DNA from: a virus
Reading direction: 5' to 3' (one strand)
DNA: 64,000 nt
Virus record (IMG/VR): IMGVR_UViG_3300040751_002066
Location: 4,930-68,929 of that record
In this document: positions 2,395 to 44,466 of the stretch, piece by piece
Layout of the letters: each line of letters starts with the position of its first letter
How positions within the stretch are numbered: the stretch's first letter is position 1
Program-made: the position numbers and the translations under genes
Notes under the pieces: generated by a model
Databases searched by the model: none
The model's input: only the letters and a program-made list of their open reading frames with translations
What the model was told of the DNA's origin: nothing

Positions 2395-3555
2395 TTACTC
2401 GTCAGAGGACTCGGGTTTGAGGGTCAGTCGCTCTTTACCTAGAACTATAACACCCATGTCAACCCCATCCTCGATAAATTCCTGAGCTACCTTGGCTTTT
2501 TCCCCACGGGGGGCTTTATCCTTAAGGACATCACGGAGTTTAGCGACCGGAATCCTAATGTTAGTGAGCAATTCGTCAAGGGTAATCCCGTGTGAGGCGC
2601 AGTAATCCCAGAATTCCTTGTTATCCGAAGCGAGTTTGGTACACCCCATGGATCGGAGCTCCCATCCGGGCAGGACTTCACCCTCATGGGACAACTCAAC
2701 CGCCTTTGATTTGATCCTCTCCAGCAGGGGCTCAACCATTTTGGCGATGCCATATAGAATGGCGACCTGTTCCGGATCCTCAAGGTTACCCACATCAATA
2801 GTGTCTGGTACCCCTACCCCGGCGGCCTCGGCGAAGTCCAACAACACCCCGTTAATCGCGGGGCAGTACTGGGCGTGGCGGCAATACGTGCAGTTCTCGT
2901 TGGGGTTCAGCTTCTCGTGGTTATCTGAGATAGTTCCGTTGGCCCACCGTTGGCGGTAGTCTTGAGCTGTCGCCACGATGACCGTAATGATCTGCCTATC
3001 GATGTCCACCGACTCCGGAGGGAAGTCGTACCAGTTGATCCAGTCAATCTGAGGGGCCAAGAAAATAAATCTCAGCTCTTCCAAGTCAGGGAACTTTTCG
3101 TAGGCCCCGTTCTTATAAGCCCGGGCCTGCAGGTTGTCGACCGCGTCGTCGACTTGCATGCGGCCGGACTTGTAATCAATCGCCAGACCTTTTTCTCCGG
3201 ACTCCGAGATACACAAAACGTCTCCGGTGCCCCACAACTCGAGGCCGCCATTCAGTTCCATAGTTAGTGGGAGTTCGTTGTACCGCTCGAAGGGCTCGTC
3301 ACCGAAGTACTCGGCAATCAACCGGTCCTCCGCTTCGACGCACTTATCAAACAGCTCGACTTCAAGCTCCGATTGGAGGTTGCACGGATCTCGTACTTCG
3401 AGGGCCTCGTGTATCCGGGTCCCCATCTCAGCAGCCGCTGAGGTTCCGGGGCGGTTCTCAAAGCCGGGACACTTCTGAAGGGCTTTCAACTGGGAGGGCC
3501 CTTGCGGGTGGTGGCCACGACTGGCGTGGTCCGGATGCTTGGTGTCATCACTCAT
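2395..3555 (-). CDS. DUF2800-like PD-(D/E)XK (Cas4-like) exonuclease
   Basis: GPS..C.G N-terminus, GTRIHEALE, GTGD..IDYKSG, QARAY, C-terminal NENCTYC....CP. Confidence 0.85.
   Translation of the reverse strand: MSDDTKHPDHASRGHHPQGPSQLKALQKCPGFENRPGTSAAAEMGTRIHEALEVRDPCNLQSELEVELFDKCVEAEDRLIAEYFGDEPFERYNELPLTMELNGGLELWGTGDVLCISESGEKGLAIDYKSGRMQVDDAVDNLQARAYKNGAYEKFPDLEELRFIFLAPQIDWINWYDFPPESVDIDRQIITVIVATAQDYRQRWANGTISDNHEKLNPNENCTYCRHAQYCPAINGVLLDFAEAAGVGVPDTIDVGNLEDPEQVAILYGIAKMVEPLLERIKSKAVELSHEGEVLPGWELRSMGCTKLASDNKEFWDYCASHGITLDELLTNIRIPVAKLRDVLKDKAPRGEKAKVAQEFIEDGVDMGVIVLGKERLTLKPESSDE
2444..2466 (-). promoter_or_regulatory. Class II promoter-like motif GGGGTTGACA-N7-TATAGT
   Basis: Minus strand GGGGTTGACA tgggtgt TATAGT, inside the nuclease 3' end and upstream of the SSB-like gene. 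Confidence 0.6.
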
Positions 3556-3935
3556 GGTAGTGGGAAGTCTAGGGTTTCAATAATCACGTGGCGCTGGGCT
3601 TTAGGTACCGCCATAGGGAGCTTGGGGTACACCTCCTTGGCGGAGACCTTAATGTCCCGCAGCTCCGCGGGGGAACGCTTCAAAAGAAAGGGAGGGAACC
3701 AACGCAATTTGAAGTGGTCCCACCACGTCTTGGGAGTTTGGAAGACCACGATAGGTTCGTACTCGTCCCGTATAAACACTGAGCCTTTTAGGTGGATGGT
3801 GAGTCGGTCGTAGGCCTGATGGATGTAGGTCCTCGCTGTGAGGGGCCCGAATTCCCTCAGGTCAATGTCTACTTGGGCCTGAACCTCTTCTTCTATAAGC
3901 CGGATTGTATCCGGGGTTACTTCGTGTGTGCTCAT
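3552..3935 (-). CDS. Hypothetical protein
   Basis: 127-aa ORF with 4-bp start/stop overlaps with both neighbours. Confidence 0.75.
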   Translation of the reverse strand: MSTHEVTPDTIRLIEEEVQAQVDIDLREFGPLTARTYIHQAYDRLTIHLKGSVFIRDEYEPIVVFQTPKTWWDHFKLRWFPPFLLKRSPAELRDIKVSAKEVYPKLPMAVPKAQRHVIIETLDFPLP

Positions 3936-4834
3936 GCGGACACCTCCTCGTGTACCTCGATGTCCTCGATCTTGACGTCAGGGAACTGTCGCTGGTGTTT
4001 GAGGAACGCCCCGCCCTTGGCTTCATCTTCGTTGGTCGCACGTACGGCTACGGACTTGTCGGGGTGGTCTCCTTCGCAAATTACATTGAGCAAGAAAGTC
4101 TTGAGACCGCTACGTATGGCCCGTTCGATGCGGGCGAGTTTGGAGGAGGGCCCACCAAAGGCACCGGGAGTCCCGCGACGTTCCTCTTTCGGCGTCATGA
4201 ATCGGTGCTCCGTAGGGTGGAGGCGGGGCAGTCCTTTGCTTTTACGGACCTTGCTGCGGACCTGCGGCGGGACATCTTTCCACTTGTCGATGAACGGGCG
4301 GGTATCCGAGATGTGCTCCACGGGAAAGTCATGCCACCCATAGCCTAAGGCCCGGTCGTTAAGCACGAGAGTTTTGTCGTCGAACTGGCAGGACACCCCC
4401 CGAATATCCTTGGGATTTCTCTGTACGAGACAGGCTTGCCCTTGCAGCTCCTTGATGGGGCCCATGTATATCTCGACGTTGCGGTGCCTGTCCGACTTTG
4501 CCTTAAGGTCACTCTTACCAATTTCGTACTCGGTAGACTTGAGCTTGGCCTCAACCTCATCCGCGTCGTCGTGCTTGGTGAAGGTGTACCCCTTCTCCTC
4601 GTCGGAGCGGGTCTCTTCTTCCGGCTCCGGGAAGAGGAGCTCCTCCCGGGTCTTTACCACCGGCACCTCCGGGGTGAGTGCCTCTTGGGATTCGAGGAAG
4701 GCGACCACCTCGGGAGACGCGACGACCCTGCCGGTGCCCTCCTCTTTCTCAAAAGGAATACCTGCCTGCTCAAGGGAGTGGATGAGGGTCTCGTTACTGT
4801 TTGTCGGTTTCTGTGTTTCTGTATCTTGTGTCAT
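3932..4834 (-). CDS. Hypothetical protein
   Basis: 300-aa ORF preceded by a class II motif and translationally coupled to the next gene. Confidence 0.8.
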   Translation of the reverse strand: MTQDTETQKPTNSNETLIHSLEQAGIPFEKEEGTGRVVASPEVVAFLESQEALTPEVPVVKTREELLFPEPEEETRSDEEKGYTFTKHDDADEVEAKLKSTEYEIGKSDLKAKSDRHRNVEIYMGPIKELQGQACLVQRNPKDIRGVSCQFDDKTLVLNDRALGYGWHDFPVEHISDTRPFIDKWKDVPPQVRSKVRKSKGLPRLHPTEHRFMTPKEERRGTPGAFGGPSSKLARIERAIRSGLKTFLLNVICEGDHPDKSVAVRATNEDEAKGGAFLKHQRQFPDVKIEDIEVHEEVSA

Positions 4835-4862
4835 AAATTTATTTAGCTGAAGTTGTGGGCGT

Positions 4863-4885
4863 AGCCTACCACGGGTGTCAACCCC
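4863..4885 (-). promoter_or_regulatory. Class II promoter-like motif GGGGTTGACA-N7-TAGGCT
   Basis: Intergenic GGGGTTGACA cccgtgg TAGGCT, 29 nt before ATG 4834. Confidence 0.65.
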
Positions 4886-5155
4886 CTACCACGTTTTCCC
4901 TACGCGTACCCCGGGCTCCGTCATTGCAAATACTCGCAGGCCCATAACGCGTGCGCCCTCCCCATCTTGGAAAGTCTTCGGGGTAACGGTCGGATAAGCT
5001 ACGAGGGAGTTTTCCGCATACAACTTGAGTGCCTCACGCTCCGGCGGTCCCAGCCACACCTCGGAGGGTCGGTGCCCCTCCTGTATGGATCTTCTTTGCC
5101 CGTCCTGAATGAGCCTAAATATACGGTGGATGTTAGATTTTGGAAAAGGCTTCAT
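4886..5155 (-). CDS. Hypothetical protein
   Basis: 89-aa ORF with a TAATG overlap with the helicase stop. Confidence 0.7.
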   Translation of the reverse strand: MKPFPKSNIHRIFRLIQDGQRRSIQEGHRPSEVWLGPPEREALKLYAENSLVAYPTVTPKTFQDGEGARVMGLRVFAMTEPGVRVGKTW

Positions 5156-6489
5156 TACCCTAGCATTGTATCCATGTTGTCAACCCCCTCGGAACATATA
5201 CGGTAAACGTACTCCTCGATGGTGCCGGCCGCTACCATTACCTTCTGAAGCAGGTCGGTCTTCATACCTGCCCTGTACGCTCGGCCAAGAACCTGCTTGT
5301 ACCCATGGGGGGAGAAGTCCGGGGAGATCAAAGTGACCCGTGGGAACTCACCCCGTACGTCATGGAGGTTGACCCCTGTTCCCCCCGCCTGAGTCTGGAC
5401 CGCTAGGACACGCATCTTATCCTCGGCCCAGTCGTCGAGAACCTGCTGCCTGTCCTTCTGCCCACCGATCACGGCTCCGGAATCAGGGAACGCCTTGCGG
5501 AACAGCTCGATGGATTCGCGGAAGTTGAAGAACCCTATGACACTCTTGCCTTCTGCAAGGAGTTCGTTGGTCTGCTCCACGAAGTGAGGCACCTTAAGGG
5601 TTTCGACGTGCTGGCGGGCCCGTAGGATGTCCGTGATCACGGCTCCGGACTCTTCTTTCTTTTCAGAAATATACCCCAGAACTTCTGAAATTATTTCCTC
5701 CGTCAAACCCGCTTGTTCGTACGCCGCGGCGGCGCCATCGTAGTCGCGGAGGTCTACCACAATGTTCTGGTTTTTGAACGCCCCGGGCATGTCACTAGTC
5801 TCAAGGCCGTGGGCCACTTGACGCGCCTCAAACAGCTCGAGGTTTAAAGTGGACAGGTCTCCGCCTTGGTTGAACTTGTACCGGTAGGGGTTGAACGGGT
5901 CCTTCACGCAACCCACGGACTCAGCCCAGTGGAAGAAGCTGTTGTTCCCCTTCATATTGTTGAGTTCGTGGAGACCCAGCGCGTACCCGAGGGCCCGCAT
6001 TTCGGAGGGGTCCTTCGCGGCCGTCGCGCTGAGGTTGAGGGTGTGATACCCCTGCTGTTTCGCAGCAATGAGTAGATTCCCGTTCTGAGTGTGGGACCCG
6101 CGGCACCACTGGACCTCGTCAAAGATAAGTAGGGTATCCTTGGGGACCTGCCACTCGAAGTACTTGTCGGTACGCCCCGTGCGTTTGCACTTCCTCTTCC
6201 TCTTGATGCGGACACAACCGTCTACGCCGTTACGTAGCTTCTCGTAGTTGTTCACGAAGAGGGGGGTTACCCCGTGGGCCGCAAGAGTGCGTTCCCAGTT
6301 GGTGACCACACTCTTGGGGCAGACTACGACCACTCCTTTCCCTTGCGACGCCCAATGAGCTGCGATGTGGGAGCTGATGATCGTCTTCCCGGTCCCTGTC
6401 TTGGAGGTGTCGAGGGCGCTACGGTGTGTGAGGAGGGCTCGGTAGATTGCCTTCGCGTGGTCGTCTTGTTTTGGGTAAAGGGTAGTCAT
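5155..6489 (-). CDS. SF2 (SNF2-like) DNA helicase
   Basis: Walker A TGTGKT, DEVQ, SAT, GGTGVNL, QVLGRAYRAG. Confidence 0.9.
   Translation of the reverse strand: MTTLYPKQDDHAKAIYRALLTHRSALDTSKTGTGKTIISSHIAAHWASQGKGVVVVCPKSVVTNWERTLAAHGVTPLFVNNYEKLRNGVDGCVRIKRKRKCKRTGRTDKYFEWQVPKDTLLIFDEVQWCRGSHTQNGNLLIAAKQQGYHTLNLSATAAKDPSEMRALGYALGLHELNNMKGNNSFFHWAESVGCVKDPFNPYRYKFNQGGDLSTLNLELFEARQVAHGLETSDMPGAFKNQNIVVDLRDYDGAAAAYEQAGLTEEIISEVLGYISEKKEESGAVITDILRARQHVETLKVPHFVEQTNELLAEGKSVIGFFNFRESIELFRKAFPDSGAVIGGQKDRQQVLDDWAEDKMRVLAVQTQAGGTGVNLHDVRGEFPRVTLISPDFSPHGYKQVLGRAYRAGMKTDLLQKVMVAAGTIEEYVYRICSEGVDNMDTMLG
5165..5187 (-). promoter_or_regulatory. Class II promoter-like motif GGGGTTGACA-N7-TACAAT
   Basis: GGGGTTGACA acatgga TACAAT in the helicase 3' end, 9 nt before ATG 5155. 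Confidence 0.6.
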
Positions 6490-6562
6490 GGGTACAAGTA
6501 ACCCGGCCCCTGAGTGTCGTGTCCTGAAGGACGGGGCCGGGTATTGGGGTTGGGGTTGGGGA

Positions 6563-7048
6563 TTACTTCTTGGCGGCGCGGGGCTTGGCCTTCGCCTTCG
6601 CCTTCACTTCCTCGTTGGCTTTGGTGATCGCTTCACCCACCTTCTCGGATTCGATTCCGTGCTCCTCGATGACTTCGTCAATCGTTGGCTCCGCTCCCCC
6701 GTCGTCAGACAGGATTGTGTGGTCGATGTTCGCCGCCTCGGATACGGCACGACCGAAGTGGAGAAACAACTTGGGTAGGAATTGAAGAAGGGGCGGACGT
6801 CCCTTCCAAAGGACTTGGGTCGCGTCGTCGGGCTCCTTTCCGCAGGACAAACTCCACACGTCCCACACTTCTTTCCCGTCAAGGGCGGCTCGTGCGGCGT
6901 TGGTGAGGTAGAGCTTCTTGAGGTCAGGGACCTGACTCCACGAGGGGAGGTCCTGTGCTCCTTGAGCGTTGCGGGCGGCTCTCGCCACTTCGTATGCTCT
7001 TTCGGCTACGTTCAGGGCGAGGGTATCTGTGGTCTGTGGTGTCGACAT
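6563..7048 (-). CDS. Hypothetical protein with a basic C-terminal tail
   Basis: 161-aa ORF in the operon, ending KAKAKAKPRAAKK. Confidence 0.75.
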   Translation of the reverse strand: MSTPQTTDTLALNVAERAYEVARAARNAQGAQDLPSWSQVPDLKKLYLTNAARAALDGKEVWDVWSLSCGKEPDDATQVLWKGRPPLLQFLPKLFLHFGRAVSEAANIDHTILSDDGGAEPTIDEVIEEHGIESEKVGEAITKANEEVKAKAKAKPRAAKK

Positions 7049-7051
7049 AGC

Positions 7052-7366
7052 TTAGTGTTTCAGGCCATCGGCGGTTGGCTCGATGTCCGGGGATTCGGGG
7101 TTCTTACTTTCGGGGTACGGGTTCTCCGTTCCGGGGGCACCCTCTTCGTTCTGTGCTTGGAGGTCTTTCCCGAGCCACATAAGGGCCTCCTCCACTTTCG
7201 TGATGGCAAGGGACCTTTCCCGGGAGGATCGGACTTTGGGTTCGTCCTCCGGACGTCCCTGACGCTGCCCGCTACGCCGTTTGAGGCGGTCGAGGACTCC
7301 GTCGAGGTCTTTCCGGAACTGCTTTGTATCTGCCACTACATGTGGCGTATTGTTTAGTGTACTCAT
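7052..7366 (-). CDS. Acb2/Tad1-like helical hairpin protein (putative immune-signal sponge)
   Basis: Motif SRERSLAITKVEEALMWL matches the Tad1/Acb2 family signature; 104 aa. Confidence 0.6.
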   Translation of the reverse strand: MSTLNNTPHVVADTKQFRKDLDGVLDRLKRRSGQRQGRPEDEPKVRSSRERSLAITKVEEALMWLGKDLQAQNEEGAPGTENPYPESKNPESPDIEPTADGLKH

Positions 7367-7377
7367 AGATTCTAAAG

Positions 7378-7869
7378 TTAATCGTCTGGCTGGTCCGCAG
7401 CTTCAAGGGCAAAGATCTCCTCCCGACTGAGTGGGATTGCGGCCCTCTCCTTGATGCGGAGGTCGTTAATTGTCGCTTCGTGTTGCTTTTCGCTCACCCC
7501 GGAGGTGAGGCCGATGAATTTATCCAGCTCCTTCTGGGCGGCGGCGGTCCGGTTAGCGAACGGGTGCTCCTCCATTTCGGCATCCAGCTCCCGTTGGAGC
7601 AGAGCGAGTGCCCTCCATGCTACCTTCGCGGAGTGCCGGATCCCATCCGTGTCTACGGTCCCAGCGTCGACGAGATGGCGGAGAAGGGCGTCCCCCTCGT
7701 CGGTGCTTTTTGACTTGTCCCAGTGTAGGGGTTTGTCCGGGTGGTGCTGGTCGTTGCCTTTCTGGCTACACTCCGCGACGGCGCAGAGGGCGTCAGGAAA
7801 ATATTTGAGGACCCCACTGTACAGGGGGATTCCTTTTCGTTCGTTTGGGTTAGTGGGTAGGTTACTCAT
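7378..7869 (-). CDS. dATP/dGTP diphosphohydrolase domain protein (DUF5664-like)
   Basis: K..PL...LKYFPDAL.AVA..S.KG..QH...W, ALLRHL, D.DG.RH.AKVAWRALA. Confidence 0.85.
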   Translation of the reverse strand: MSNLPTNPNERKGIPLYSGVLKYFPDALCAVAECSQKGNDQHHPDKPLHWDKSKSTDEGDALLRHLVDAGTVDTDGIRHSAKVAWRALALLQRELDAEMEEHPFANRTAAAQKELDKFIGLTSGVSEKQHEATINDLRIKERAAIPLSREEIFALEAADQPDD

Positions 7870-8414
7870 TACTTAAGTTTGTTGAATGTTCGGAGGAAGG
7901 TGGCCATCGCGGCCTCCGGTGTCCACGGAATAATGCGCGGCACACCGATCAACCCGTCATAATCGCGGACGGGGATGGGCAACTCGAAGTCGCGTGCTTC
8001 GGCTGAAAGCATTAGCGCATCGGCGTCCTCCACTGCGGGATTAAGGGTGGCCCCGACACACCCCTTACGTGCCACCTTAAAGTGGCGGAAGATGGACTCC
8101 TGTACCTTGTCCTCAATCTTGCAATACTCCGGGAGGAGGCTCTTGAGAGGGGCGGGGATGTCAGAAAGGAAAGCCTCCGAGGCGTCGTGCAACAGAGCTT
8201 CCAACGCGTACTCTTTGGGGACAATTCGGGAGCACAGCACACTGTGCTGGGCGACCGAGTAGAAGGTCGAAAGATTCCCACTAAACCGGCAGAGCTGGGA
8301 CAAGGCCCTAGCTATCTGGCGGATGGTGTATGGGTACTGCTCCGGGCTGAGAAAGTAAAATGCCTTCCCATTGGGGAGCACAATGTGTCGATCTTCGGGT
8401 TTTGGGACGCTCAT
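7869..8414 (-). CDS. HD-domain 5'-deoxynucleotidase (YfbR-like)
   Basis: IARALSQLCRF.G, FYSVAQHS, LLHDASEA..SDIP.PLK, AD..ML..E.RD; likely start ATG 8414. Confidence 0.88.
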   Translation of the reverse strand: MSVPKPEDRHIVLPNGKAFYFLSPEQYPYTIRQIARALSQLCRFSGNLSTFYSVAQHSVLCSRIVPKEYALEALLHDASEAFLSDIPAPLKSLLPEYCKIEDKVQESIFRHFKVARKGCVGATLNPAVEDADALMLSAEARDFELPIPVRDYDGLIGVPRIIPWTPEAAMATFLRTFNKLK

Positions 8415-8420
8415 GTATGA

Positions 8421-8443
8421 ACAATAACACACATGTCAACCCC
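8421..8443 (-). promoter_or_regulatory. Class II promoter-like motif GGGGTTGACA-N7-TATTGT
   Basis: Intergenic GGGGTTGACA tgtgtgt TATTGT; ATG 8414 starts 7 nt after the hexamer, the expected +1. Confidence 0.7.
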
Positions 8444-8453
8444 TGATCAGAAA

Positions 8454-8942
8454 CTAGTGGGTGAGGCTCTCGGACTCTGCCTTGGTCCGAAGCAGGGACG
8501 TGTCGGCCGCGGCATACCAAAGGGCACAGGCATCCGCGAGGTCGTTACTGGGGATAGTGCTAAAGTCCCCTCGCCTCACTGCCTCGTTCTGCATGTCTTC
8601 CTTAGACGCCTTACCTCCCCCGGTGAAGAACTTCTTGAGGGTGGTTGGGGGGACCTCGTGGATGATCCGCACCCCGGCAGTGGCGCAGGCTAGGCGTACC
8701 ACTCCTCCTATCTCTCCGAGACGGTGTTGCCGAGAACGGGCGGCGAAGGCATACCCCTCAATGACTGCCACCTCGGGCTTGTGTTTGAGGAGGTGCGCAA
8801 GGATCTTGTCGTGCATGGTGCGGAGACGGGTGACCCCTCGCTCTGACCCGCCTTTGATTTCTTCGTACTGGCCCGGGCCGAAGTACATGGCGGTGTTGGT
8901 TAGGGACACATCAATGCCCACGGCGTTACTCGGAGTCTTCAT
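8454..8942 (-). CDS. ruvC: RuvC-like Holliday junction resolvase
   Basis: VGIDVSLTNT, VIEGY, LGEIGGVVR, VPPTTLKKFFTGGGKASKEDM, NDLADA. Confidence 0.88.
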   Translation of the reverse strand: MKTPSNAVGIDVSLTNTAMYFGPGQYEEIKGGSERGVTRLRTMHDKILAHLLKHKPEVAVIEGYAFAARSRQHRLGEIGGVVRLACATAGVRIIHEVPPTTLKKFFTGGGKASKEDMQNEAVRRGDFSTIPSNDLADACALWYAAADTSLLRTKAESESLTH

Positions 8943-9701: not shown

Positions 9702-9745
9702 TGACTTATGCGCGACAGTTTGACACACTCCGAATACCATGTCAA
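9701..9745. promoter_or_regulatory. Overlapping divergent sigma70-like promoters
   Basis: Plus strand TTGACT-17-CACACT (9701-9729) before terL; minus strand TTGACA-17-CAAACT (9745-9717). Confidence 0.45.
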
Positions 9746-11541: not shown

Positions 11542-11556
11542 GCACAATGTAAAAGT

Positions 11557-11665: not shown

Positions 11666-11693
11666 CCAGCGGCAGCATGGAAACTTTGCGGGA

Positions 11694-11716
11694 GGGGTTG
11701 ACACCTGTGGTATGGT
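11694..11716 (+). promoter_or_regulatory. Class II promoter-like motif upstream of the tRNA pair
   Basis: GGGGTTGACA cctgtgg TATGGT. Confidence 0.65.
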
Positions 11717-11978: not shown

Positions 11979-12007
11979 TTGCCAAGGCCCCCCTGTTTAC
12001 CTATAAT
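11979..12007 (+). promoter_or_regulatory. Canonical sigma70-type promoter with leaderless geometry
   Basis: TTGCCA-17-TATAAT, with ATG 12013 five nt downstream. Confidence 0.7.
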
Positions 12008-13936: not shown

Positions 13937-13965
13937 TTGACTTAGGGTATCTTTCTCGGTAGTAT
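13937..13965 (+). promoter_or_regulatory. Canonical sigma70-type promoter
   Basis: TTGACT-17-TAGTAT upstream of ATG 13978. Confidence 0.65.
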
Positions 13966-36291: not shown

Positions 36292-36307
36292 TTCTTTGTT
36301 GGGTTAC

Positions 36308-36823: not shown

Positions 36824-36851
36824 ATTCTTTGTTGGTTGTTGGTTGGATGGG

Positions 36852-37367: not shown

Positions 37368-37438
37368 ATTCTTTGTTGGTTGTTGGTTGGATGGGTGCCC
37401 CACATACTGGTTGCTACTAGTATGCAGGACAAGTCGGT

Positions 37439-37870: not shown

Positions 37871-37959
37871 AATAGTTTTGTTGGTCGTTGGTTGTTGGTT
37901 GGTTGGGGAGCACCCTGAACCATGGGGTCGGACCATGGTTCAGGGTTCTGGGTTCAGGG

Positions 37960-38226
37960 TTAGATACCAAGATCGTCGTCTTCCTTCTTCTTCGCCTCCG
38001 CTGCCTCTTCCTCTTCCTCAATCAAAGCGTCGAAGCGTTCGTTGAGGGTGTCCCGAAGGGAACGAAGAGCTGCCAACGTCTCGCTGCGTGTAGCCTTAAG
38101 GGTAGGCTTACTCCCGGGGACTTGGGTGGTCACCTTCTCATTGAGGAGGGTGGAGGTTTGGTAAGTATCAACCTTGTGCGTGATGGCGAGGTCGAGGGTA
38201 ATGGTAGTTTCGGATGGTGTTTTCAT
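37960..38226 (-). CDS. Hypothetical acidic-tailed protein
   Basis: 88-aa ORF. Confidence 0.65.
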   Translation of the reverse strand: MKTPSETTITLDLAITHKVDTYQTSTLLNEKVTTQVPGSKPTLKATRSETLAALRSLRDTLNERFDALIEEEEEAAEAKKKEDDDLGI

Positions 38227-38258
38227 AGTAACAGTGGTAGTGGTAGTTGTAGTTGTAG

Positions 38259-38597
38259 TTAGAGAACCAGCTCATGGGTGTACGAACTGGTGCGATTGAA
38301 GGTACGTGCGAGTGTCCACGAGTAGGGCAGGCCCTTACAAGTTAGGATAACGAGCACACGGTCGTGGAAGTAGGATGTTGTAACCTCTTGCACTTCATAA
38401 AAAGTGGAATCGTATCGGAAGCGAACCCACTTGAGGTTGGTCTGAAGCCATTGCAACTGGGCAGTCGGACCGGCGAGGCGGGCCTCCTGTTTGCGGATGG
38501 CTGCGAGGTGGCGGGAGGCCCCGACCTCACGGACATCTTTCGATGCGCCGTGGGGCAGGACCTCGGGGTGCCTCCACTCAGGAAGAGGCAGTGACAT
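38259..38597 (-). CDS. Hypothetical protein
   Basis: 112-aa ORF. Confidence 0.55.
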   Translation of the reverse strand: MSLPLPEWRHPEVLPHGASKDVREVGASRHLAAIRKQEARLAGPTAQLQWLQTNLKWVRFRYDSTFYEVQEVTTSYFHDRVLVILTCKGLPYSWTLARTFNRTSSYTHELVL

Positions 38598-38844
38598 AAG
38601 AGGGGAGCACTACGGATGACCGCACACCCACCTCCGATGGGTGAACCTTCTGATGCTCGACCAAGGGAAGCACCCTCGACACTGGGACCCGATTGGGTGG
38701 GACGAATGGACGAACAATCAGGAGGTTACCCTCCCGACCCAACACCACGACACGGCGTCCCCTCAGCATAAGGGTCTCGCCGACGTAAATGGCCCAGCCT
38801 CTCGTACTAATGCCGACTAGTTTGGTATTGGTTCTACGCTTCAT
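38578..38844 (-). CDS. Hypothetical protein
   Basis: 88-aa ORF overlapping both neighbours. Confidence 0.55.
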   Translation of the reverse strand: MKRRTNTKLVGISTRGWAIYVGETLMLRGRRVVVLGREGNLLIVRPFVPPNRVPVSRVLPLVEHQKVHPSEVGVRSSVVLPSYVTASS

Positions 38845-39169
38845 AATATCCGGGGGTGGAGGGTTGGTCTGGCTGGGGGTAGTGTCCCCAGTAACTCTCG
38901 ACTACCTTGTCGAGGGCGTCGGAGTCAATGGTGTTCCACCTCTCGGAGGTGAGGGTATCGAACTCGGCACCATACTTCTCACAGGTCCTTCTCAGGAACT
39001 CCCGCTTGAACTTGTGGGCGAGGTCGATGTACTTGGTGCAACGGCTACGTGCCGAGTGGAGGATGACGTGGTCCTTACCTACACTGACCGAACACCGGCG
39101 CTTGAAGGGTTTAGGGGCCGGACCTTTCGGCTTCTCGTTGTCTGCTTTAATTTGAGGTAGTGCTTTCAT
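38834..39169 (-). CDS. Hypothetical protein
   Basis: 111-aa ORF after the leader AACCAAAACAAATAGCTATG. Confidence 0.7.
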   Translation of the reverse strand: MKALPQIKADNEKPKGPAPKPFKRRCSVSVGKDHVILHSARSRCTKYIDLAHKFKREFLRRTCEKYGAEFDTLTSERWNTIDSDALDKVVESYWGHYPQPDQPSTPGYYEA

Positions 39170-39238
39170 AGCTATTTGTTTTGGTTAAATGCACCGCTCT
39201 TGAAGAGGTGGCGGTGTGCCTCACCTGCTTGGTTGGGG

Positions 39239-39676
39239 TTACTTCAGGGATTTCTTTACCCCAACGGCGGCGCGATTGATCTCTGCAAGGGAGCTGAAGG
39301 ATATGGTCTGGCACCCCACGTGGATGCCTTCCTTATCTACCGTTGCGGTGTAATCCCCGACACCGGGGACCTCAATACTAAGCTCCTCTTCCACAGGGGC
39401 GAGGAGGCTTATGATTTGTGCGAGGTCTTCCTGCCAGTCCCACAGATTAGTGAGGCCCGCCCCGTGAGCATATCCCCCAACTACTTGGAGGGCGTCCGGT
39501 CTTACCTTCACCACGGTGTACCTCGGGTATGACTTGTCCACCCATTCTTCCGGGGTGGCATCATACACTGTGATCGAGCCGGGTGTGTAGATCGCATACC
39601 CCATAGTTGAGAGTAGGGTCAGGCATTGGATGGCGTCTTGATGGCTGGAGAATTGGATGTTAATTACTTTAGACAT
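39239..39676 (-). CDS. Hypothetical protein
   Basis: Start ATG 39676 after a dyad hairpin and CAA leader. Confidence 0.7.
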   Translation of the reverse strand: MSKVINIQFSSHQDAIQCLTLLSTMGYAIYTPGSITVYDATPEEWVDKSYPRYTVVKVRPDALQVVGGYAHGAGLTNLWDWQEDLAQIISLLAPVEEELSIEVPGVGDYTATVDKEGIHVGCQTISFSSLAEINRAAVGVKKSLK

Positions 39677-39751
39677 ACTATTTTGTTGGTTGTTGGTTGT
39701 TGGTTGGGTGCCCCACATACTGGTCTTCACTAGTATGTGGGGCAGGTTAGC

Positions 39752-40267
39752 CTAGAGGGCAGCTTGCAGCTCCTTTTGGATCGTTGACGCCAGCGCCTCC
39801 ACACATTCCAGACCGGCCGCGCCCACCATGATGAGGTCCTTGGCACGTTCCACCTCCTTGGAGATGCGGTCTTCAGTCGCTTGGAGGCGGGCCTCCAACT
39901 TAGCCTGCACTTTCCTGAGTGCCTTCTTCTCCTTGGAGAGACGAGTGATCTCCTCTTGGTGGTCGTTGGTGATGAGGTTAAGCACCGGAATATTAGCTAC
40001 GTAACCACCCAAGTTGGAACGATTCTCTTCGATGGTCGCAGCAATAACCTTCCGGACCGCCGCCGCCGGTGCGGGACGGGGGTTGGCATAGGGATCCTCA
40101 AGGAGCGAGTTGATTCGATCCCGGATCCAATCGATCCGCACCCGGCCATCAGTGCGGGCAGCGTCGCAGAGGTCATGGTGCGCGTCGCGGGCAAGAGAGT
40201 CGAGGCGTTTCACGATGTGCTTCTTCTCCGAGGCTGTCATTTTTGGGGTGTTATTTGTAGTCTTCAT
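39752..40267 (-). CDS. Hypothetical coiled-coil protein flanked by direct repeats
   Basis: 171 aa; near-identical ~70-bp hairpin-plus-leader blocks on both sides. Confidence 0.75.
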   Translation of the reverse strand: MKTTNNTPKMTASEKKHIVKRLDSLARDAHHDLCDAARTDGRVRIDWIRDRINSLLEDPYANPRPAPAAAVRKVIAATIEENRSNLGGYVANIPVLNLITNDHQEEITRLSKEKKALRKVQAKLEARLQATEDRISKEVERAKDLIMVGAAGLECVEALASTIQKELQAAL

Positions 40268-40353
40268 ACTATTTTGTTGGTTGTTGGTTGTTGGTTGTTG
40301 GTTGGGTGCCCCACATACTGGTCTTCACTAGTATGTGGGGCGATTGGTTGTGG

Positions 40354-40638
40354 TTAGCCACGCATCATGGCGGCGGCGAGACCGGAAACGTCACCCGTCT
40401 TGAGCATGCGTTCACTGTCCTCCATGGATGCGGCTTGCTTAAGGCCACGGGCCCGACGGTCTACCGATTTCTTCGCGACCGTCGGGTTCGCTACGACTTC
40501 AATCACCCCGTCTTCACGGGAGGTCAAGTCTTTGTTGATAATAAGAATCACTGGAGCCTTCGCGCCACGCGCAAGAGTCAGAGTGAATCCTTTGTATTGG
40601 GCGGTTGCCCCCATCTTGTTTTCTGTTTTGGTTTTCAT
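40354..40638 (-). CDS. Hypothetical basic protein
   Basis: 94-aa ORF. Confidence 0.6.
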   Translation of the reverse strand: MKTKTENKMGATAQYKGFTLTLARGAKAPVILIINKDLTSREDGVIEVVANPTVAKKSVDRRARGLKQAASMEDSERMLKTGDVSGLAAAMMRG

Positions 40639-40753
40639 GTTACAGGCCGGAAGTCTATCCGGTGGGGTATGTCCCGCGCAGCCGAAGCCACACGGGGCAC
40701 ACAGTCACCGTGCATACTTAGTCACGGATACAGAGGGACTTGTTGGGGATTAA

Positions 40754-41041
40754 CTAGCGAGCCGTTCCGAAGAACCGGATCAAGCGGCGAGCCGCCTCCC
40801 GATCTGATGTCTCGAACACCTCCCGCTCGGAGTGGCGACCCACCTTGGTGACAAGGCGGACCCCCTCTGGATCCACGTCAACAGTGGCGCACCGTTCATG
40901 GGTGCGCAACTCGACGTGTCCGTTGTCATCATTCTGGAAGGCCAGCACCCCGGATGGCACCACCATCATGAGGGTGGCGACACGAGTGGCTGCGGCACGT
41001 GACGGAACTCCCGTCACACTTTGGTTGTTTTTTGTATTCAT
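40754..41041 (-). CDS. Hypothetical protein
   Basis: 95-aa ORF after a hairpin and CAA leader. Confidence 0.65.
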   Translation of the reverse strand: MNTKNNQSVTGVPSRAAATRVATLMMVVPSGVLAFQNDDNGHVELRTHERCATVDVDPEGVRLVTKVGRHSEREVFETSDREAARRLIRFFGTAR

Positions 41042-41173
41042 TGTTTTGTTGGCTGGGTTGTTAGTTGTTACCCAGTGCTATGTCACTTGTGATACATACT
41101 AGTTGATACTAGTAGGTCACAAGTGACACGCCACTGAGAGTATAAGAACTCAATCTTATACCTGTGGTTGGGG

Positions 41174-41359
41174 TTAAATGATAGATGCGGTTAGCACCAC
41201 GAGTATGGCGAGGATGGCCCACGACGCTAGCTCGAATGCGGTTCTCATGGAGCGGGCCAAGTGTGGTTCACCCACTGGGCGAGTTTGCCTAGCCCAATCA
41301 CAAGGGCCACGAAGGCCACGAGATAAGCCAATCTCACTGGTCCCTCCCTTCTTGCTCAC
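41174..41359 (-). CDS. Small membrane protein
   Basis: C-terminal hydrophobic helix WAILAILVVLTASII. Confidence 0.45.
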   Translation of the reverse strand: MSKKGGTSEIGLSRGLRGPCDWARQTRPVGEPHLARSMRTAFELASWAILAILVVLTASII

Positions 41360-41528
41360 GTCGGATCCGAAAGGTGGTGACGTAGTTGCGGAGGATCTCC
41401 CGCACCAAGGGCATGCGCCTGTCCCGCCACCAATGCCGGAACGCCCACTTCAAGTCGGCGTCTATCGCGCCACGATGGTTAGTAAACCCCGGAGGCCGGG
41501 GCTTTATCTTTTGCTTATTTGTTTTCAT
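41334..41528 (-). CDS. Small basic hypothetical protein
   Basis: 64 aa; ATGA overlap with the upstream gene. Confidence 0.6.
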   Translation of the reverse strand: MKTNKQKIKPRPPGFTNHRGAIDADLKWAFRHWWRDRRMPLVREILRNYVTTFRIRREQEGRDQ

Positions 41529-41905
41529 ATCAATTTGGATACTTGTTCCACTTGTTCAAGAGGCCAAGACTTGTCTCCGTAGTAGAGGTTTTCGAGGTCG
41601 TGGGTTTCGAGATACGCCTCGAGCAAGGCGCGGAACATGGGGCCCACATTGTCCATGAACGGAGCGGGTCGGATCGCCAAGAAGTCATACGTGACTCCTC
41701 GGAACTTGAAGCAGTCGTTGGCGACGCGGAGGATGGGCTCGACTATAGTGTGGCCCTCATTGGTCACGCCGGTCACTACTTCAATGGAACTCCCCGAGTA
41801 AAGCGTGGACCAGAACGTCTCACACCAATGGGCGCGGAGCTTGGTTCCGTTGCCGGGTGAGGTGCCGCATGAGCGTAGCTCTATCTCTATGATCTTTGGA
41901 TACAT
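41525..41905 (-). CDS. Hypothetical protein
   Basis: 126 aa; dyad directly upstream of the ATG. Confidence 0.65.
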   Translation of the reverse strand: MYPKIIEIELRSCGTSPGNGTKLRAHWCETFWSTLYSGSSIEVVTGVTNEGHTIVEPILRVANDCFKFRGVTYDFLAIRPAPFMDNVGPMFRALLEAYLETHDLENLYYGDKSWPLEQVEQVSKLI

Positions 41906-41935
41906 GATGATACTGGTTGGGACTAGTAAGTGGGC

Positions 41936-42412
41936 CTAGTAAGTGTCACGGCGGGAGGCCCCGCGAACATTGACACGAGGGTAGGATTTAGGTTCCTTGG
42001 CGAGGCGCAAATCCGCGAGGACGTAGCACAAGGAGGTCAGGCCGTTGCGGGTGGTCCGGACGGACCGGTGCGGATACTTGTCGCTAAAGTGCGACGCTAG
42101 GCAACAGTGGAGCACCCATTCAAGGGACCGGAGCAGGTAGGTCCGGATCACCCCCTCGACATCCGTCCCTCTTTGATCCTCCTCGTCTACAAGGATGCGA
42201 CTCATGCGGGCCCCCAACTCGCGGGTGCACACCCCCTCGGGAAGGCCGTTGGGGAAATGAAGGGTCACCTCTAGGGGAACCTCGACATCCACGGGGTCTC
42301 TCTTCACAGGGGCGGGGGGAACCCCGCGATTGATGAAGCGCCCTTGGGCGTTGCTGGCTTTGCCCTTATTCATTCGGATAAGGGCCTTTCGTTTTTGTTT
42401 GTGCTCTTTCAT
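41936..42412 (-). CDS. Hypothetical basic protein
   Basis: Start reassigned to ATG 42412 (MKEHKQK); the longer called ORF runs through tandem repeats. Confidence 0.55.
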   Translation of the reverse strand: MKEHKQKRKALIRMNKGKASNAQGRFINRGVPPAPVKRDPVDVEVPLEVTLHFPNGLPEGVCTRELGARMSRILVDEEDQRGTDVEGVIRTYLLRSLEWVLHCCLASHFSDKYPHRSVRTTRNGLTSLCYVLADLRLAKEPKSYPRVNVRGASRRDTY

Positions 42413-42523
42413 AGCGGACACCCTCCCCCGTCCGGAGACGTGAGAGGGTGGGTCGCTATGCCCTGATCCATGATCCCCGATCCCCGATCCGATACTAGTA
42501 GCCCCTAGTATGGAGTCAGGGTG

Positions 42524-42611
42524 CAGTGCCATACAGTGCCATACAGTGCCATACAGTGCCATACAGTGCCATACAGTGCCATACAGGATACAGGATACAG
42601 GATACAGGATA
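42524..42611. repeat. Compound microsatellite (CAGTGCCATA)x6 plus (CAGGATA)x4
   Basis: Directly visible perfect tandem arrays. Confidence 0.97.
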
Positions 42612-42613
42612 CG

Positions 42614-42982
42614 CTATACACTGGCAATCTCAATGGCGGGACCGTCCTCACGGTGGGGCCGTCCGATTGAGAACCATTTCGAATGCCGCTCGCATACTGT
42701 TTCGAATGCGACGGTCCTCTCAAGAGTGTTCGCCCCTATGGTCCTCGCGTATCTTTTAACGCAAACGGTGGCATCTTGGAGGTCGCCGAAGTGATCCGTA
42801 TAATAGTCCATTTGCCTGATGAGGTCGTCGATACGACCGAGGGATGCGCAAAGCACAGGGGGGAGGAAAGCTGCGCAAACTCGCAGGAATTCCTCCCTTG
42901 TGGGAGTAATACTGCGCAACTGGATTGCGAGGGCCGCCTTAAACGTGGAGCTTTCGCCCTCAAGGTATTGATGTAGTGTCAT
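42614..42982 (-). CDS. Hypothetical protein ending in one HREDGPAIE unit
   Basis: 122 aa after a hairpin and AAACC-rich leader. Confidence 0.65.
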   Translation of the reverse strand: MTLHQYLEGESSTFKAALAIQLRSITPTREEFLRVCAAFLPPVLCASLGRIDDLIRQMDYYTDHFGDLQDATVCVKRYARTIGANTLERTVAFETVCERHSKWFSIGRPHREDGPAIEIASV

Positions 42983-43079
42983 AGTTTTTGTTTTGGTTTT
43001 GGTTCTTGTTTTGGTTTTGGGTAAAGTAAAGGGACCATACTAGAGCTTACTAGTATGGTCCCTTGTCGGTGCGGTCTTC

Positions 43080-43634
43080 TTAGGCGAAGACCTTGGCGAG
43101 GAGGAGTGCGGCCGCCTTGGCCTCGGCCCATTCTTTTGAATGGGTGTTCTGCCCGTCCAACTTGGCGGTCAGGGATTCAATCTGCTTGGCGATTGAATCG
43201 GGATTTAATGCCCTAGCCTTCCCGCCTTTCGCCTTGCCCTTTCCGGAAGTCTGAATGTTCCAAAGATCCTCCGACTTTTTGAGGCCCATCCATTTTCCAG
43301 AGAAACTAGACAAAGACTTGGCGTCTTTGGTTTCCTTGGGGAACAAGAGCTTGGCAGCCCCCCGCATCCCTTGGTGAAACAAGTCCCATTCGAAGTTGGC
43401 ACGGTAGGCCCAAAGGCCAATTTGCTTCCATTGAGGCTTGCCCCATACTTTACTAGTCCCGACTAGTAACTCCGCAAGGAAGGACGTGGCCGCATCCTGC
43501 TCGGCCATGCCCGTTTCAGCCAGTTGGTTCCAGCGGGCACAGAGGGCAACGACTAGTTTATCTTCGGACTTGTCGAATGCTTCGAGGGCGTTAAGGATGA
43601 TCGCGGATACTTCGATTTTGTTTTTAGTTGTCAT
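43080..43634 (-). CDS. Hypothetical protein, first gene of the early block
   Basis: 184-aa ORF; dyads upstream (43699) and inside (43451). Confidence 0.75.
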   Translation of the reverse strand: MTTKNKIEVSAIILNALEAFDKSEDKLVVALCARWNQLAETGMAEQDAATSFLAELLVGTSKVWGKPQWKQIGLWAYRANFEWDLFHQGMRGAAKLLFPKETKDAKSLSSFSGKWMGLKKSEDLWNIQTSGKGKAKGGKARALNPDSIAKQIESLTAKLDGQNTHSKEWAEAKAAALLLAKVFA

Positions 43635-44087
43635 TTTCTTTTCTTGGTTATGGGAAAGCGGTGTGCTCTCCCTTCACTAGGATAGGTGAACAGACCCCCA
43701 TACTAGTCGGGACCAGTTTGCGCGGCGGACCCTGATCCCCGACCCCTGATCCCTGAGCCTTGGTTCCGGATGCAGGGCCCTGAGCCTCCGACCCGGCTGC
43801 TGGGGGGTGGGTTCGTTTTTCTCGGTACCGGAATCATAGTATATTATGGTGCACACAATTTGTTGAAAATACTTTTGTTGCACCGGAGGGGGTTGTGGAA
43901 CGGACTGAGAATCAGTGACTTACAAAAGTGTGACATTTTGTCGCACCTGTTTCGCAATATATTGCACAAGTTGCACCGGGCCGGCGCAAGATTCAGAGCA
44001 CGGGGCTCGCAAGCCTTGTACCTACAACGATCCTCGGTGCAATATTTGTTGCACGCGGGTGCAAAATCAGGGATCAGGGCGCAGGGT

Positions 44088-44412
44088 AAAAATGGGCTTA
44101 CTGAGTATCAATGAGTTAGCGGTTCGTTTTGCCGCAAATAGGGGCGCTAGCCCGCATAGGTACAAGGAAACGCAACGTGAGGGATCCCCCACTCCACGGA
44201 CCCCCACTCCACAAACCCCTTAAGGAAGAGTTTTCTGTATTACTGAGAGAGTAGGATCTCTTCTGATAATACCTTTATGGAGGGTTTGTGGAGTGGGGGT
44301 CCGTGGAGTGGGGGTTCCCGCGGACCACGTTTCCTTGTACCTATGCGGGCTGGAGCCTCTATTTGCGGCAAAACGAACCGCTAACTCACTGATACTCAGT
44401 AAACCCCTTTTT
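44088..44412. repeat. Large imperfect inverted repeat (~132-bp arms, ~61-bp AT-rich spacer); candidate origin or packaging/terminus signal
   Basis: Arm 44088-44219 is the reverse complement of 44281-44412 with scattered mismatches; each arm has two CCCCCACTCCAC units; sits at the strand-divergence point. Confidence 0.92.
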
Positions 44413-44443
44413 GCGACCCATCAAAAGACCAGATTACCCGAAT

Positions 44444-44466
44444 GGGGTTGACACGTGTGGTACCTT
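44444..44466 (+). promoter_or_regulatory. Class II promoter-like motif GGGGTTGACA-N7-TACCTT
   Basis: GGGGTTGACA cgtgtgg TACCTT, with ATG 44472 five nt downstream. Confidence 0.65.

Follow-up and report, generated by a model that had tools for sequence, protein, structure and literature searches.

Sigma-70 holoenzymes contact promoters at -35 and -10 elements whose separation, about 17 bp, is set by holoenzyme architecture. T4 middle promoters combine a MotA box with a sigma-70 -10 element, and AsiA remodels sigma region 4; the MotA box has a TGCTT core and is centered near -30, 11 to 13 nt from the hexamer. At lambda PR', a -35-like TTGACT stands beside a pause-inducing -10-like element, and region 4 is bound there in the Q-loading complex. 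Sigma-54 promoters carry GG at -24 and GC at -12 (TGGCAC-N5-TTGC), mycobacteriophage L5 stoperators are asymmetric sites found many times across the genome, mostly away from promoters, and Thermus phages use leaderless starts. The Z-element is mapped, in the available text of the report (PMC3173786), to -24 to -18 with a core of AACCT or AACAT at -22 to -18; there it substituted for the -35 element with Thermus polymerase, had effects with the E. coli and B. subtilis polymerases too, and was loose in sequence, single changes having less than a 2-fold effect.

The window analyzed here, a 64,000-nt stretch of phage DNA, contains six sites with a TTGACA box 7 nt upstream of a TAnnnT hexamer (N7 sites). 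They resemble the described phage extended -10 class, which likewise has TG upstream of TAnnnT, lacks a normal -35 element, and uses the host polymerase; nothing is conserved from -20 to -30 in that class, whereas the N7 sites have an invariant TTGACA and a G/C tract. As in T4 middle promoters, a phage-specific class has its -35 element replaced by an upstream box at a fixed distance, but the N7 box is the -35 consensus, centered near -22/-23 and 7 nt from the hexamer, rather than TGCTT near -30. Lambda PR' provides a precedent for region 4, off the beta flap, binding a -35-like hexamer far closer than 17 bp, although the PR' complex is paused in early elongation and has a spacing of 1 bp, and the N7 sites are predicted initiation promoters with 7-bp spacing. 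Unlike sigma-54 promoters, the N7 sites lack GC at -12 and have TAnnnT with TG as the downstream element; unlike stoperators, each of the six boxes is tied to a -10 element at 7 nt. The Z-element, as far as the available text describes it (PMC3173786), resembles the N7 box as a spacer element near -24 to -18 able to replace the -35 element given a strong -10, but its AACCT/AACAT core is without the invariant TTGACA and upstream G/C tract, and the N7 sites read CATGG, CACCC, CAACA, CATGT, CACCT, and CACGT at that position.

A conserved -35 hexamer 10 bp closer than normal would mean either an enzyme reshaped in an undescribed way or an unrecognized element beside an extended -10, read by the basal machinery or by an activator. 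The N7 sites are short and defined and could be tested in vitro without phage culture. For annotation, the motif would mark transcription units and leaderless starts in a widespread marine phage group that has no cultured member.

The N7 sites and the canonical promoters of the window phage

Searching the window for GGGGTTGACA-N7-TAnnnT returned six matches, against 0 in 100 dinucleotide shuffles. Their coordinates, strands, and hexamers are those given in a preliminary description of this DNA, and all six are co-oriented with the next gene, as it had proposed:

N7 promoter 1, 2444..2466, minus strand: box 2457-2466, TGt, -10 TATAGT 2444-2449; matrix score 24.1
N7 promoter 2, 4863..4885, minus strand: box 4876-4885, -10 TAGGCT 4863-4868; matrix score 20.4
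N7 promoter 3, 5165..5187, minus strand: box 5178-5187, -10 TACAAT 5165-5170; matrix score 20.8
N7 promoter 4, 8421..8443, minus strand: box 8434-8443, TGTGTGt, -10 TATTGT 8421-8426; matrix score 28.3
N7 promoter 5, 11694..11716, plus strand: box 11694-11703, -10 TATGGT 11711-11716; matrix score 26.1
N7 promoter 6, 44444..44466, plus strand: box 44444-44453, -10 TACCTT 44461-44466; matrix score 21.3

The whole 68,929-bp record contains the same six sites and no further ones, with 0 matches to a reversed-pattern control. Each of the six exact copies of GGGGTTGACA has TAnnnT 7 nt downstream and none stands alone; none of the three one-mismatch variants has TAnnnT at that distance. Of the genome's 34 TTGACA hexamers, 6 have TAnnnT after a 7-nt spacer, and any other spacer length from 3 to 25 nt occurs 0 or 1 time. 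The preliminary description had foreseen spacer peaks at both 7 and 17 nt; 7 is the only peak, and 17 is a single case that is none of the six sites. It had also extended the box upstream with GGGG. The TTGACA part holds, but the pooled sites are better described by a tract of G or C, variable in length. These counts support the N7 sites as a distinct promoter class, as predicted from sequence, with spacing fixed at 7 nt.

The -10 hexamer is TAnnnT in all six sites, and five have the extended -10 TG at -15/-14 directly upstream, as the preliminary description had noted, with GG instead at 5165-5187. TG was not part of the search pattern; in the pooled set of 26 unique N7 sites, G occupies -14 in 24 and T occupies -15 in 18. 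Nothing resembling a -35 hexamer lies 16 to 18 bp upstream of the -10. The canonical place reads GAGGAT, TGGTAG, TCCGAG, TGATCA, GCGGGA, and CCGAAT, and information content at -35 to -30 is below 0.5 bit over the 26 sites, bearing out the claim that this position has no consensus. Instead, the G/C tract and TTGACA occupy about -30 to -20 (TTGACA itself about -25 to -20), and the invariance of this box suggests that upstream sequence matters for activity. The short distances to ATG reported earlier are also correct (9, 6, and 5 nt past the hexamer at 5165, 8421, and 44444). Extended -10 TG and leaderless geometry support the view that the -10 side carries independent, putative sigma-70 hallmarks.

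N7 promoter 1 lies within the 3' end of the exonuclease gene, and its transcript is expected to start near 2437, about 150 nt upstream of the downstream 244-aa gene (1550-2284). N7 promoter 2 is separated by 28 nt from the ATG of the 300-aa gene (3932-4834), whereas N7 promoter 3, within the last codons of the helicase gene, is 9 nt from the ATG of the 89-aa gene (4886-5155). Conservation at N7 promoters 1 and 3, both within 3' gene ends, is partly coding. From N7 promoter 4 to the ATG at 8414 of the HD-domain dNMP/dNTP phosphohydrolase gene (7869-8414) is 6 nt, which predicts a leaderless mRNA. N7 promoter 5 lies about 90 nt upstream of tRNA-Met (11806-11882), which is followed by tRNA-Gly (11885-11958). 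N7 promoter 6 heads the rightward gene row 44472-52668, with its ATG at 44472, 5 nt past the hexamer in leaderless geometry; an inverted repeat with 131-nt arms ends 32 nt upstream of it. The flanks of the six copies have no mutual similarity.

We read the N7 sites, with a probability of about 0.8, as working extended -10 (TRTG-n-TAnnnT) promoters of a host sigma-70-family RNA polymerase, in which a compulsory G/C tract plus TTGACA would replace the -35 element. Transcription would start about 7 nt past the hexamer and yield mRNAs that are leaderless or have C/A-rich leaders without a Shine-Dalgarno sequence.

Promoters with conventional spacing also occur in the window:

9717..9745, minus strand: TTGACA-N17-(TGt)CAAACT; heads the leftward row of 62-aa protein, HTH protein, and RuvC
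11979..12007, plus strand: TTGCCA-N17-TATAAT; ATG of the 342-aa gene 5 nt on
13937..13965, plus strand: TTGACT-N17-TAGTAT, read from sequence; upstream of the 4311-aa gene
52761..52789, plus strand: TTGTGA-N17-TATTCT, with palindrome TGTGACAAAATGTCGC within the spacer; upstream of the 445-aa gene
54973..55001, plus strand: TTGACC-N17-TACAAT with TG; upstream of the 58-aa holin-like ORF and the amidase gene

The first is conserved as TTGACA-N17-CAnAAT in three relatives (L209, L211, and L216) and overlaps an operator-like palindrome; the second has a counterpart, TTGCTA-N17/18-TATAAT, upstream of the 342-aa orthologue in four (L209, L211, L212, and L216). The proposal that structural and lysis genes use N17 promoters stands for those before the 342-aa, 4311-aa, probable capsid, and holin-like ORFs, but not for the class at 36-56 kb, where 10 matches against 7.2 expected are not above chance.

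Conservation in relatives and occurrence elsewhere

Relatives whose polymerase identity is as low as 51% have N7 sites at the same three gene junctions. The exonuclease/244-aa junction site (N7 promoter 1) is present in all relatives covering it (L209, L211, L212, L216, L217, and L221). L209, L216, L217, and L221 retain the helicase/300-aa junction site (N7 promoter 2), which L211 and L212 have lost. The site after RuvC (N7 promoter 4) occurs in L209, L211, L212, L215, L216, and L217; in these, a start codon follows 6 to 9 nt past the hexamer. Four relatives (L209, L211, L212, and L216) have neither the tRNAs nor the N7 promoter 5 site, and L217 has a degenerate copy of that site with altered spacing. 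The relatives' DNA compared lies outside the region of N7 promoter 6 (44444..44466).

The loci of six relatives contain 15 N7 matches, all on the gene strand, compared with a mean of 1.06 and a maximum of 5 in 50 shuffles. Further, a matrix trained solely on the relatives' 18 sites recovers exactly the six window sites, with scores of 20 to 28; no other window score exceeds 12, and the best shuffle reaches 14.7. Absence of the 7-bp spacing from relatives had been named as evidence that would count against the class; both the junction comparison and the relatives-trained matrix find the spacing conserved. Among 50,697 phage records, no match to the window phage exceeds 28% identity. A distant group of 147 loci is without the N7 motif, as are the distant relatives that share the polymerase, terminase, and HTH protein with the window phage but not the 62-aa, 161-aa, and 300-aa proteins and RuvC.

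A second phage family (G001, G002, G308, and G310) has the N7 architecture as well, upstream of the terminase-portal operon, indicating that its use is not confined to replication genes. The temporal switch and the 'middle' label that the preliminary description gave these sites are conjectural. A tblastn comparison of window genome ORFs of at least 40 aa with the 25 to 31% of the second-family genomes covered by sequence found no credible shared protein. In this family and in contig L327, some promoters have two TTGACA boxes 9 to 10 bp apart, at N16/N17 and N7 spacing. Cellular genomes differ: 185,579 species genomes contain 24 exact N7 matches where uniform base composition predicts about 22, 301 Planctomycetota contain 7 against 13 for reversed-pattern controls, and five cellular genomes have a single N7 site apiece. 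The sampled cellular genomes, from which the host genome may differ, thus show no enrichment of the motif, and exact matches at chance level point to a phage-supplied helper. We consider the N7 architecture a real, conserved promoter class for which we found no description in the literature; its mechanism we can only infer.

Possible readers of the TTGACA box

The reader that we consider likeliest is sigma region 4, the module that recognizes TTGACA at -35, which would have been brought closer to the -10 element by about one helical turn (10 bp, ~34 A). The mover would be a small, fast-evolving phage protein, remodeling region 4 much as Thermus phage P23-45 gp39 or T4 AsiA does. Under this scheme, the remodeled enzyme alone would fire promoters that have just the close box, and both enzyme forms would fire the two-box promoters of the second family. 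This full mechanism is a tentative reading that may well be wrong. Doubtful, in our view, is its wider form, a new kind of sigma appropriation in which a small protein of several uncultured marine phage lineages pulls region 4 one turn and creates a private close-box class along with dual-use N17/N7 promoters.

In favor of region 4, all six positions of the box match the -35 consensus, and junction boxes are either intact or lost, whereas N17 promoters tolerate TTGCCA, TTGACT, TTGACC, and TTGCTA. A shift of 10 bp leaves the box on the same side of the helix. The recurrence of the architecture in a second family with no detected shared protein, and the two-box promoters with N16/N17 and N7 spacings, also fit. 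Against it, we know of no described sigma-70 holoenzyme that recognizes a -35 hexamer only 7 bp from the -10, and the promoter activity of the N7 sites is itself deduced from sequence. The N17 promoters before capsid-like and lysis genes would be awkward if remodeling shut N17 promoters off late. The G-or-C tract looks like shape readout, with no parallel at normal -35 elements; the host's own genome may use the N7 architecture, unlike the sampled genomes; and with 25 to 31% of second-family genomes seen, both families may have a factor or DNA-binding activator in common. Relocation of region 4 by a phage protein, over ~45 A, has a precedent in gp39, for which the available text does not report DNA binding by the relocated region (PMC3950348).

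Among the PHROGs, Pfam, and NCBIfam matches of the scanned ORFs there are no relatives of phage sigma factors, RNA polymerase, AsiA, MotA, or gp39, although small, fast-evolving proteins would escape such scans. The HTH protein at 8926-9516, named earlier among the possible factors, is a weak candidate: its HTH is of the psq/transposase type, its weak matches are small-terminase-like, and 56 of the 147 distant loci, which lack the motif, encode a homologue of 27% identity. No candidate remodeler of region 4 emerged. The 62-aa acidic protein is clade-specific, with six homologues in 1.84 billion representatives, and structure comparisons gave it no significant match (best Z 4.9; Foldseek E 7.9).

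Alternatively, by the logic of MotA, a phage activator could bind the G/C tract and TTGACA at -30 to -20 and recruit the host polymerase to the extended -10, region 4 not being the reader. Strict conservation of the box over 6 to 10 bp, its constant coupling to the -10, and the occurrence of N7 sites in phages without enrichment in sampled cellular genomes all fit, as does the absence of the motif from distant relatives that share the polymerase, terminase, and HTH protein but have no 62-aa, 161-aa, or 300-aa protein or RuvC. We nevertheless consider it unlikely. Equal DNA specificity would be needed in two families with no shared protein detected in partial genomes, as would a coincidence with the region 4 consensus; the conserved early part shows no DNA-binding protein except the terminase-like HTH protein, and interchangeable G and C tracts argue against base-specific reading of the tract.

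A factor-free reading, in which the polymerase itself (the beta' zipper/zinc domain or sigma region 3) recognizes the box as a strong version of the Z-element, would account for the recurrence of the box in unrelated phages and for the failure to find a phage factor. It too is improbable, since reading by polymerases in general should lead to cellular use and the sampled genomes are at chance. The mapped Z-element (-24 to -18) lies near TTGACA at about -25 to -20, but, going by the available text (PMC3173786), it is loose, differs in sequence, and stops 4 nt short of the hexamer; for the invariant TTGACA that gap is 7 nt.

There is little to recommend a self-sufficient extended -10 promoter whose box is an operator at -30 to -20, where a phage or host repressor switches it off or delays it. 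The spacer region is well placed for blocking polymerase, the window phage has other operator-like repeats at promoters, and extended -10 promoters need no -35 element, according to the available text of PMC3950348. However, the site is single and asymmetric, the box is never found apart from the -10, and the distance between them is fixed to the base over 51 to 78% polymerase divergence and in the second family, as expected for contact within an initiation complex but not required for a steric block.

That the sites are not promoters, and reflect chance or coding similarity, a recombination or packaging signal, or a -35 element with its real -10 17 nt downstream, is hardly credible despite the partly coding conservation at sites 1 and 3 inside 3' gene ends, given 0 matches by chance, the unrelated flanks of the six copies, TAnnnT 16 to 18 nt past the box in none of the six (and at N17 for 1 of the 34 TTGACA hexamers in the genome), and the location of all sites on the gene strand with TG at -15/-14 and leaderless geometry.

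Close-box sites in the phage genome

Scanning for TTGACA followed after 7 nt by a TAnnnT hexamer (an N7 site) recovers the six sites of the preliminary description, compared with none in 100 shuffled sequences, and no further site in the whole genome. Their window positions are as follows.

2444-2466, minus strand: N7 site 1
4863-4885, minus strand: N7 site 2
5165-5187, minus strand: N7 site 3
8421-8443, minus strand: N7 site 4
11694-11716, plus strand: N7 site 5
44444-44466, plus strand: N7 site 6

TTGACA occurs 34 times on the two strands, and TAnnnT follows after 7 nt in six of these 34. Separate spacer peaks at 7 and 17 nt had been anticipated; over spacers of 3 to 25 nt, the former is present (six matches), but 17 nt occurs just once and every other spacer once or not at all. 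All six exact copies of GGGGTTGACA carry the TAnnnT hexamer, as do none of the three one-mismatch variants. The flanks of the six copies are mutually unrelated, indicating that they do not belong to a duplicated segment.

Three features that lay outside the search pattern are shared by many of the sites. Across 26 unique sites pooled from the window and its relatives, two probable chance matches included, G is found at -14 in 24 and T at -15 in 18, forming the TG of an extended -10. An ATG follows the hexamer after 5, 6, and 9 nt at three window sites; six relatives have an orthologue of the site that follows RuvC, and in these the start codon lies 6 to 9 nt past the hexamer. Further, the claimed orientation along the gene strand holds for all six window sites and for 15 of 15 sites in relatives. 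Positions -35 to -30 carry no information in the 26 pooled sites, and no usable -10 lies 16 to 18 nt after the box at any of the six. The tract preceding TTGACA is mostly G-rich and elsewhere C-rich (S at 21 to 25 of the 26 sites over -29 to -26), with variable length. The extended -10 motif, the start-codon geometry, and the strand bias point to a sigma-70-type -10 element, and on this sequence evidence we regard the N7 sites as probable promoters (probability about 0.8).

Distribution among phages and cellular genomes

Relatives were retrieved as marine metagenome loci via polymerase alignment (polymerase identities of 78, 61-65, 51, and 44%). Their gene order is conserved, with the terminase in one direction and an opposite row that runs from a 62-aa protein through the HTH protein, RuvC, nucleotide-metabolism genes, helicase, a 300-aa protein, exonuclease, a 244-aa protein, and polymerase to primase-helicase. 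The 7-nt spacing described for the window is conserved in these phages: the histogram of TTGAC[AG]...TAnnnT spacers in six non-redundant loci peaks at 7 nt (15 matches), with six matches at 9 nt and one at 17 nt, and across 50 shuffles of the relatives the number of 7-nt matches averages 1.06 and never exceeds 5. The minor 9-nt peak was set aside, since most of it reflects the canonical promoter at the head of the leftward row (TTGACA-N17-CAnAAT) showing up under this spacing. The N7 sites after RuvC and at the exonuclease/244-aa junction are found in every locus covering these places, with TATAAA as the hexamer of the conserved junction site in two loci (L216 and L221). At the helicase/300-aa junction, four loci keep the site and two (L211 and L212) have lost both box and spacing. 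With a weight matrix trained on no sites but the 18 from relatives, the six window sites score 20.4 to 28.3 and no other genome position exceeds 12; on five shuffled genomes it gives at most one match above 12, the best scoring 14.7.

A more distant marine group, larger than the N7 clade (147 loci; polymerase identity 40-47%), shares the polymerase, primase-helicase, exonuclease, terminase, HTH protein, and start of the giant gene. The N7 class is absent from this group, with five single matches in 80 viral-collection loci, and its promoters look canonical with 17-nt spacing. Searches there for an analogous box by k-mer offset and repeated 9-mers gave coding repeats only.

The same N7 architecture is found in a second phage family outside the window lineage. 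Three of its contigs (G001, G002, and G308) carry two or three N7 sites each, and a fourth (G310), whose terminase shares 38% identity with theirs, has two strong sites; 7 nt is the sole spacer peak in each of the four. N7 promoters of this family lie at the following places.

L320 (contig G001), 6368-6610
L336 (contig G308), 9713-9892 and 1629-1647
L337 (contig G310), 284-414

The family's tandem pair is built of a G-tract, TTGACA, GGTGTGT, TATAAT or TATGAT, and an ATG after 6 nt; downstream of the pair come a small gene, a 181-aa gene, the terminase, and a 712-aa gene. In G310, a tRNA follows immediately after one of the sites. A divergent promoter in the family has one TTGACA at 16 nt and another at 7 nt from TATAAT, and a further contig, L327, has two TTGACA boxes exactly 10 bp apart. 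No credible protein shared with the window genome was found by tblastn covering 25-31% of the second-family genomes.

A strict pattern (G-tract box, GTG, hexamer, and ATG after 5 to 9 nt) finds nine stretches in the viral collection, which we grouped into four unrelated sets; one is the G001/G310 family, comprising two lineages, and the other three, each with a single site (G309, of which L329 is a duplicate; L327; and L322), may be chance matches. The 8-nt control finds one stretch and the 6-nt control four, each of the four being a canonical N17 promoter picked up in the wrong register. An initial scan of the viral collection with 15 specified bases was set aside as mostly chance matches: an ATG lies 4 to 10 nt after the hexamer in 15 of the 123 matches listed, about the chance level.

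Among 185,579 cellular species genomes, the strict pattern occurs in 24 stretches scattered over phyla, compared with about 22 expected if base composition is assumed uniform, and none of five matching genomes contains a second site. In 301 Planctomycetota genomes, a 13-base pattern gives 7 matches versus 13 for its reversed control. Thus, N7 is not a common cellular promoter type in the sampled genomes.

Possible readers of the close box

Word searches of open-access text returned no account of promoters that place TTGACA 7 nt from an extended -10 element. We place the N7 class with factor-modified or -35-independent sigma-70 promoters. T4 AsiA/MotA offers a precedent for relocating sigma region 4, and at lambda PR' region 4 binds close to a -10-like element. 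Our tentative mechanism is one in which sigma is likewise relocated, so that host region 4 would be the shared reading head of the close box within a phage-altered enzyme. Four observations favor region 4: the box matches the -35 consensus at every position and is kept more strictly than the -35 of the clade's canonical promoters; it is offset by 10 bp; some promoters carry both boxes; and the architecture recurs in unrelated phages and not in sampled cellular genomes. A further precedent is P23-45 gp39, which displaces region 4 by about 45 Å and spares extended -10 promoters (PMC3950348).

Alternatively, a MotA-like phage activator might itself read the box. The box might also be a factor-free element akin to the Z-element, which lies at -24 to -18 and is able to replace the -35 (PMC3173786); the published Z-element differs from the N7 box in both sequence and register. 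A further alternative is that the box serves as an operator.

The HTH protein (gene 8926-9516), proposed earlier as a candidate box reader, is a weak candidate for that role: it also occurs in the distant group, where N7 sites are lacking, it has a psq-type HTH, and it weakly matches small terminases. It is 196 aa long, with 16 clade members and a homologue of 27% identity in 56 of 147 distant-group loci. A profile search identifies a psq/transposase-type HTH at its N terminus (PDB 2elh, E = 5e-7), with IS630/IS3 matches, and no match of the profile to sigma region 4. There are weak matches to generic DNA-binding families, and small-terminase families are matched in 10 of the 16 members. In a low-confidence structure prediction (pLDDT 55.6, confident at the HTH only), the middle of the protein is helical and its tail disordered. 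The gene and that of the terminase stand back to back. The protein is probably a small terminase.

By its distribution alone, the acidic 62-aa protein that opens the same leftward row is a candidate reader or factor: a search of 1.84 billion representatives gives 6 homologues, all within the clade, and the protein is absent from the 147 distant-group loci. Its model has four helices (pLDDT 85.9), for which structure searches give no significant neighbor; the first Foldseek result, region 4 of sigma-E, is not evidence of likeness at E = 7.9 and TM = 0.30. A Sigma70_r3 match in a 161-aa protein (E = 0.036) was dropped, as it falls in a non-conserved acidic tail.

Genome setting and neighboring repeats

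The window covers bases 4930-68929 of a virus record of 68,929 bp, the ends of which repeat over 113 bp. The window has 58% G+C, and the genome encodes a family-A DNA polymerase, primase-helicase, helicase, exonuclease, RuvC, large terminase, amidase, and two tRNAs; family searches of its ORFs revealed neither an RNA polymerase nor a sigma factor. Nothing among 50,697 phage records is closely similar: megablast and terminase tblastn give no match at all, and the polymerase reaches 28% identity at best. The amidase has viral clusters as its nearest in the Atlas. Window 2300-12100 is present in seven public DNA metagenome runs (estuary, marine, and mollusc), with no RNA run listed among the public runs.

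No Shine-Dalgarno sequence precedes any of the approximately 60 starts examined. Leaders are C/A-rich, with tandem CCAACAA heptads (for example, window 32708-32749, 34232-34250, and 40274-40304) and often A at -3, a style also seen in the distant group (L194) and the second N7 family; they suggest hosts that start translation without Shine-Dalgarno pairing. Just outside the window, a gene flanked by those for the polymerase and the primase-helicase encodes a 124-aa protein with an RF-1 domain, of the ArfB/peptidyl-tRNA hydrolase type (Pfam 2e-22; genome 3760-4134, minus strand; locus L128). Three neighboring genes at window 7052-8414 (minus strand) encode an Acb2/Tad1 hairpin-domain protein (Pfam 1e-7), a protein matching the dATP/dGTP diphosphohydrolase N-terminal domain, and an HD phosphohydrolase (dNMP phosphatase families, with a weak dATPase match); no PurZ-like gene was seen. 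The giant 4311-aa ORF (window 13978-26913, plus strand) is without a family match in PHROGs or a credible one in Pfam, and its product has no sequence match among solved structures, polymerases included. It has internal repeats of about 510 bp and an upstream canonical TTGACT-N17-TAGTAT promoter, and 20 distant-group loci encode relatives of its first 1000 residues at 26% identity.

Repeats and palindromes in the window are listed here.

31730-43720: palindromic hairpin CATACTRGT-N4-ACYAGTATG, 12 copies (0.78 expected by chance)
44088-44412: inverted repeat, 131-nt arms, 89% complementary, 63 nt between, just upstream of N7 site 6
11557-11665: related hairpin, 40-nt arms, after the terminase gene
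9712-9727, 43929-43945, and 52762-52777: operator-like palindrome TGTGNCANAATGTCGC, three places (0.23 expected)
36408-36746 and 36955-37290: 69-bp tandem repeats, about five copies each, two adjacent paralogous 183-aa genes with a DUF6745 match
12274-12415: exact 18-bp unit, 7.9 copies, inside a 342-aa gene
42524-42620: 10-bp and 7-bp units, start of a 208-aa gene

The CATACTRGT hairpins all lie between small leftward genes, frequently with CCCC/GGGG flanks; T-runs on the gene strand are missing from all 12, and a C/A-rich leader follows most. Possible roles are RNA processing or stabilizing hairpins, or paired TAGTAT -10 elements. The long inverted repeats are possibly a bidirectional terminator or an origin, and relatives have a comparable long hairpin and T-run after the terminase gene. 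One copy of TGTGNCANAATGTCGC lies over the -10 region of a canonical leftward promoter, one in the spacer of the promoter before a 445-aa gene, and one in the 43.9-kb control region, suggesting a putative regulator of the canonical promoters that is distinct from the N7 class. TTGCAC/GTGCAA boxes are also repeated in the 43.9-kb region.
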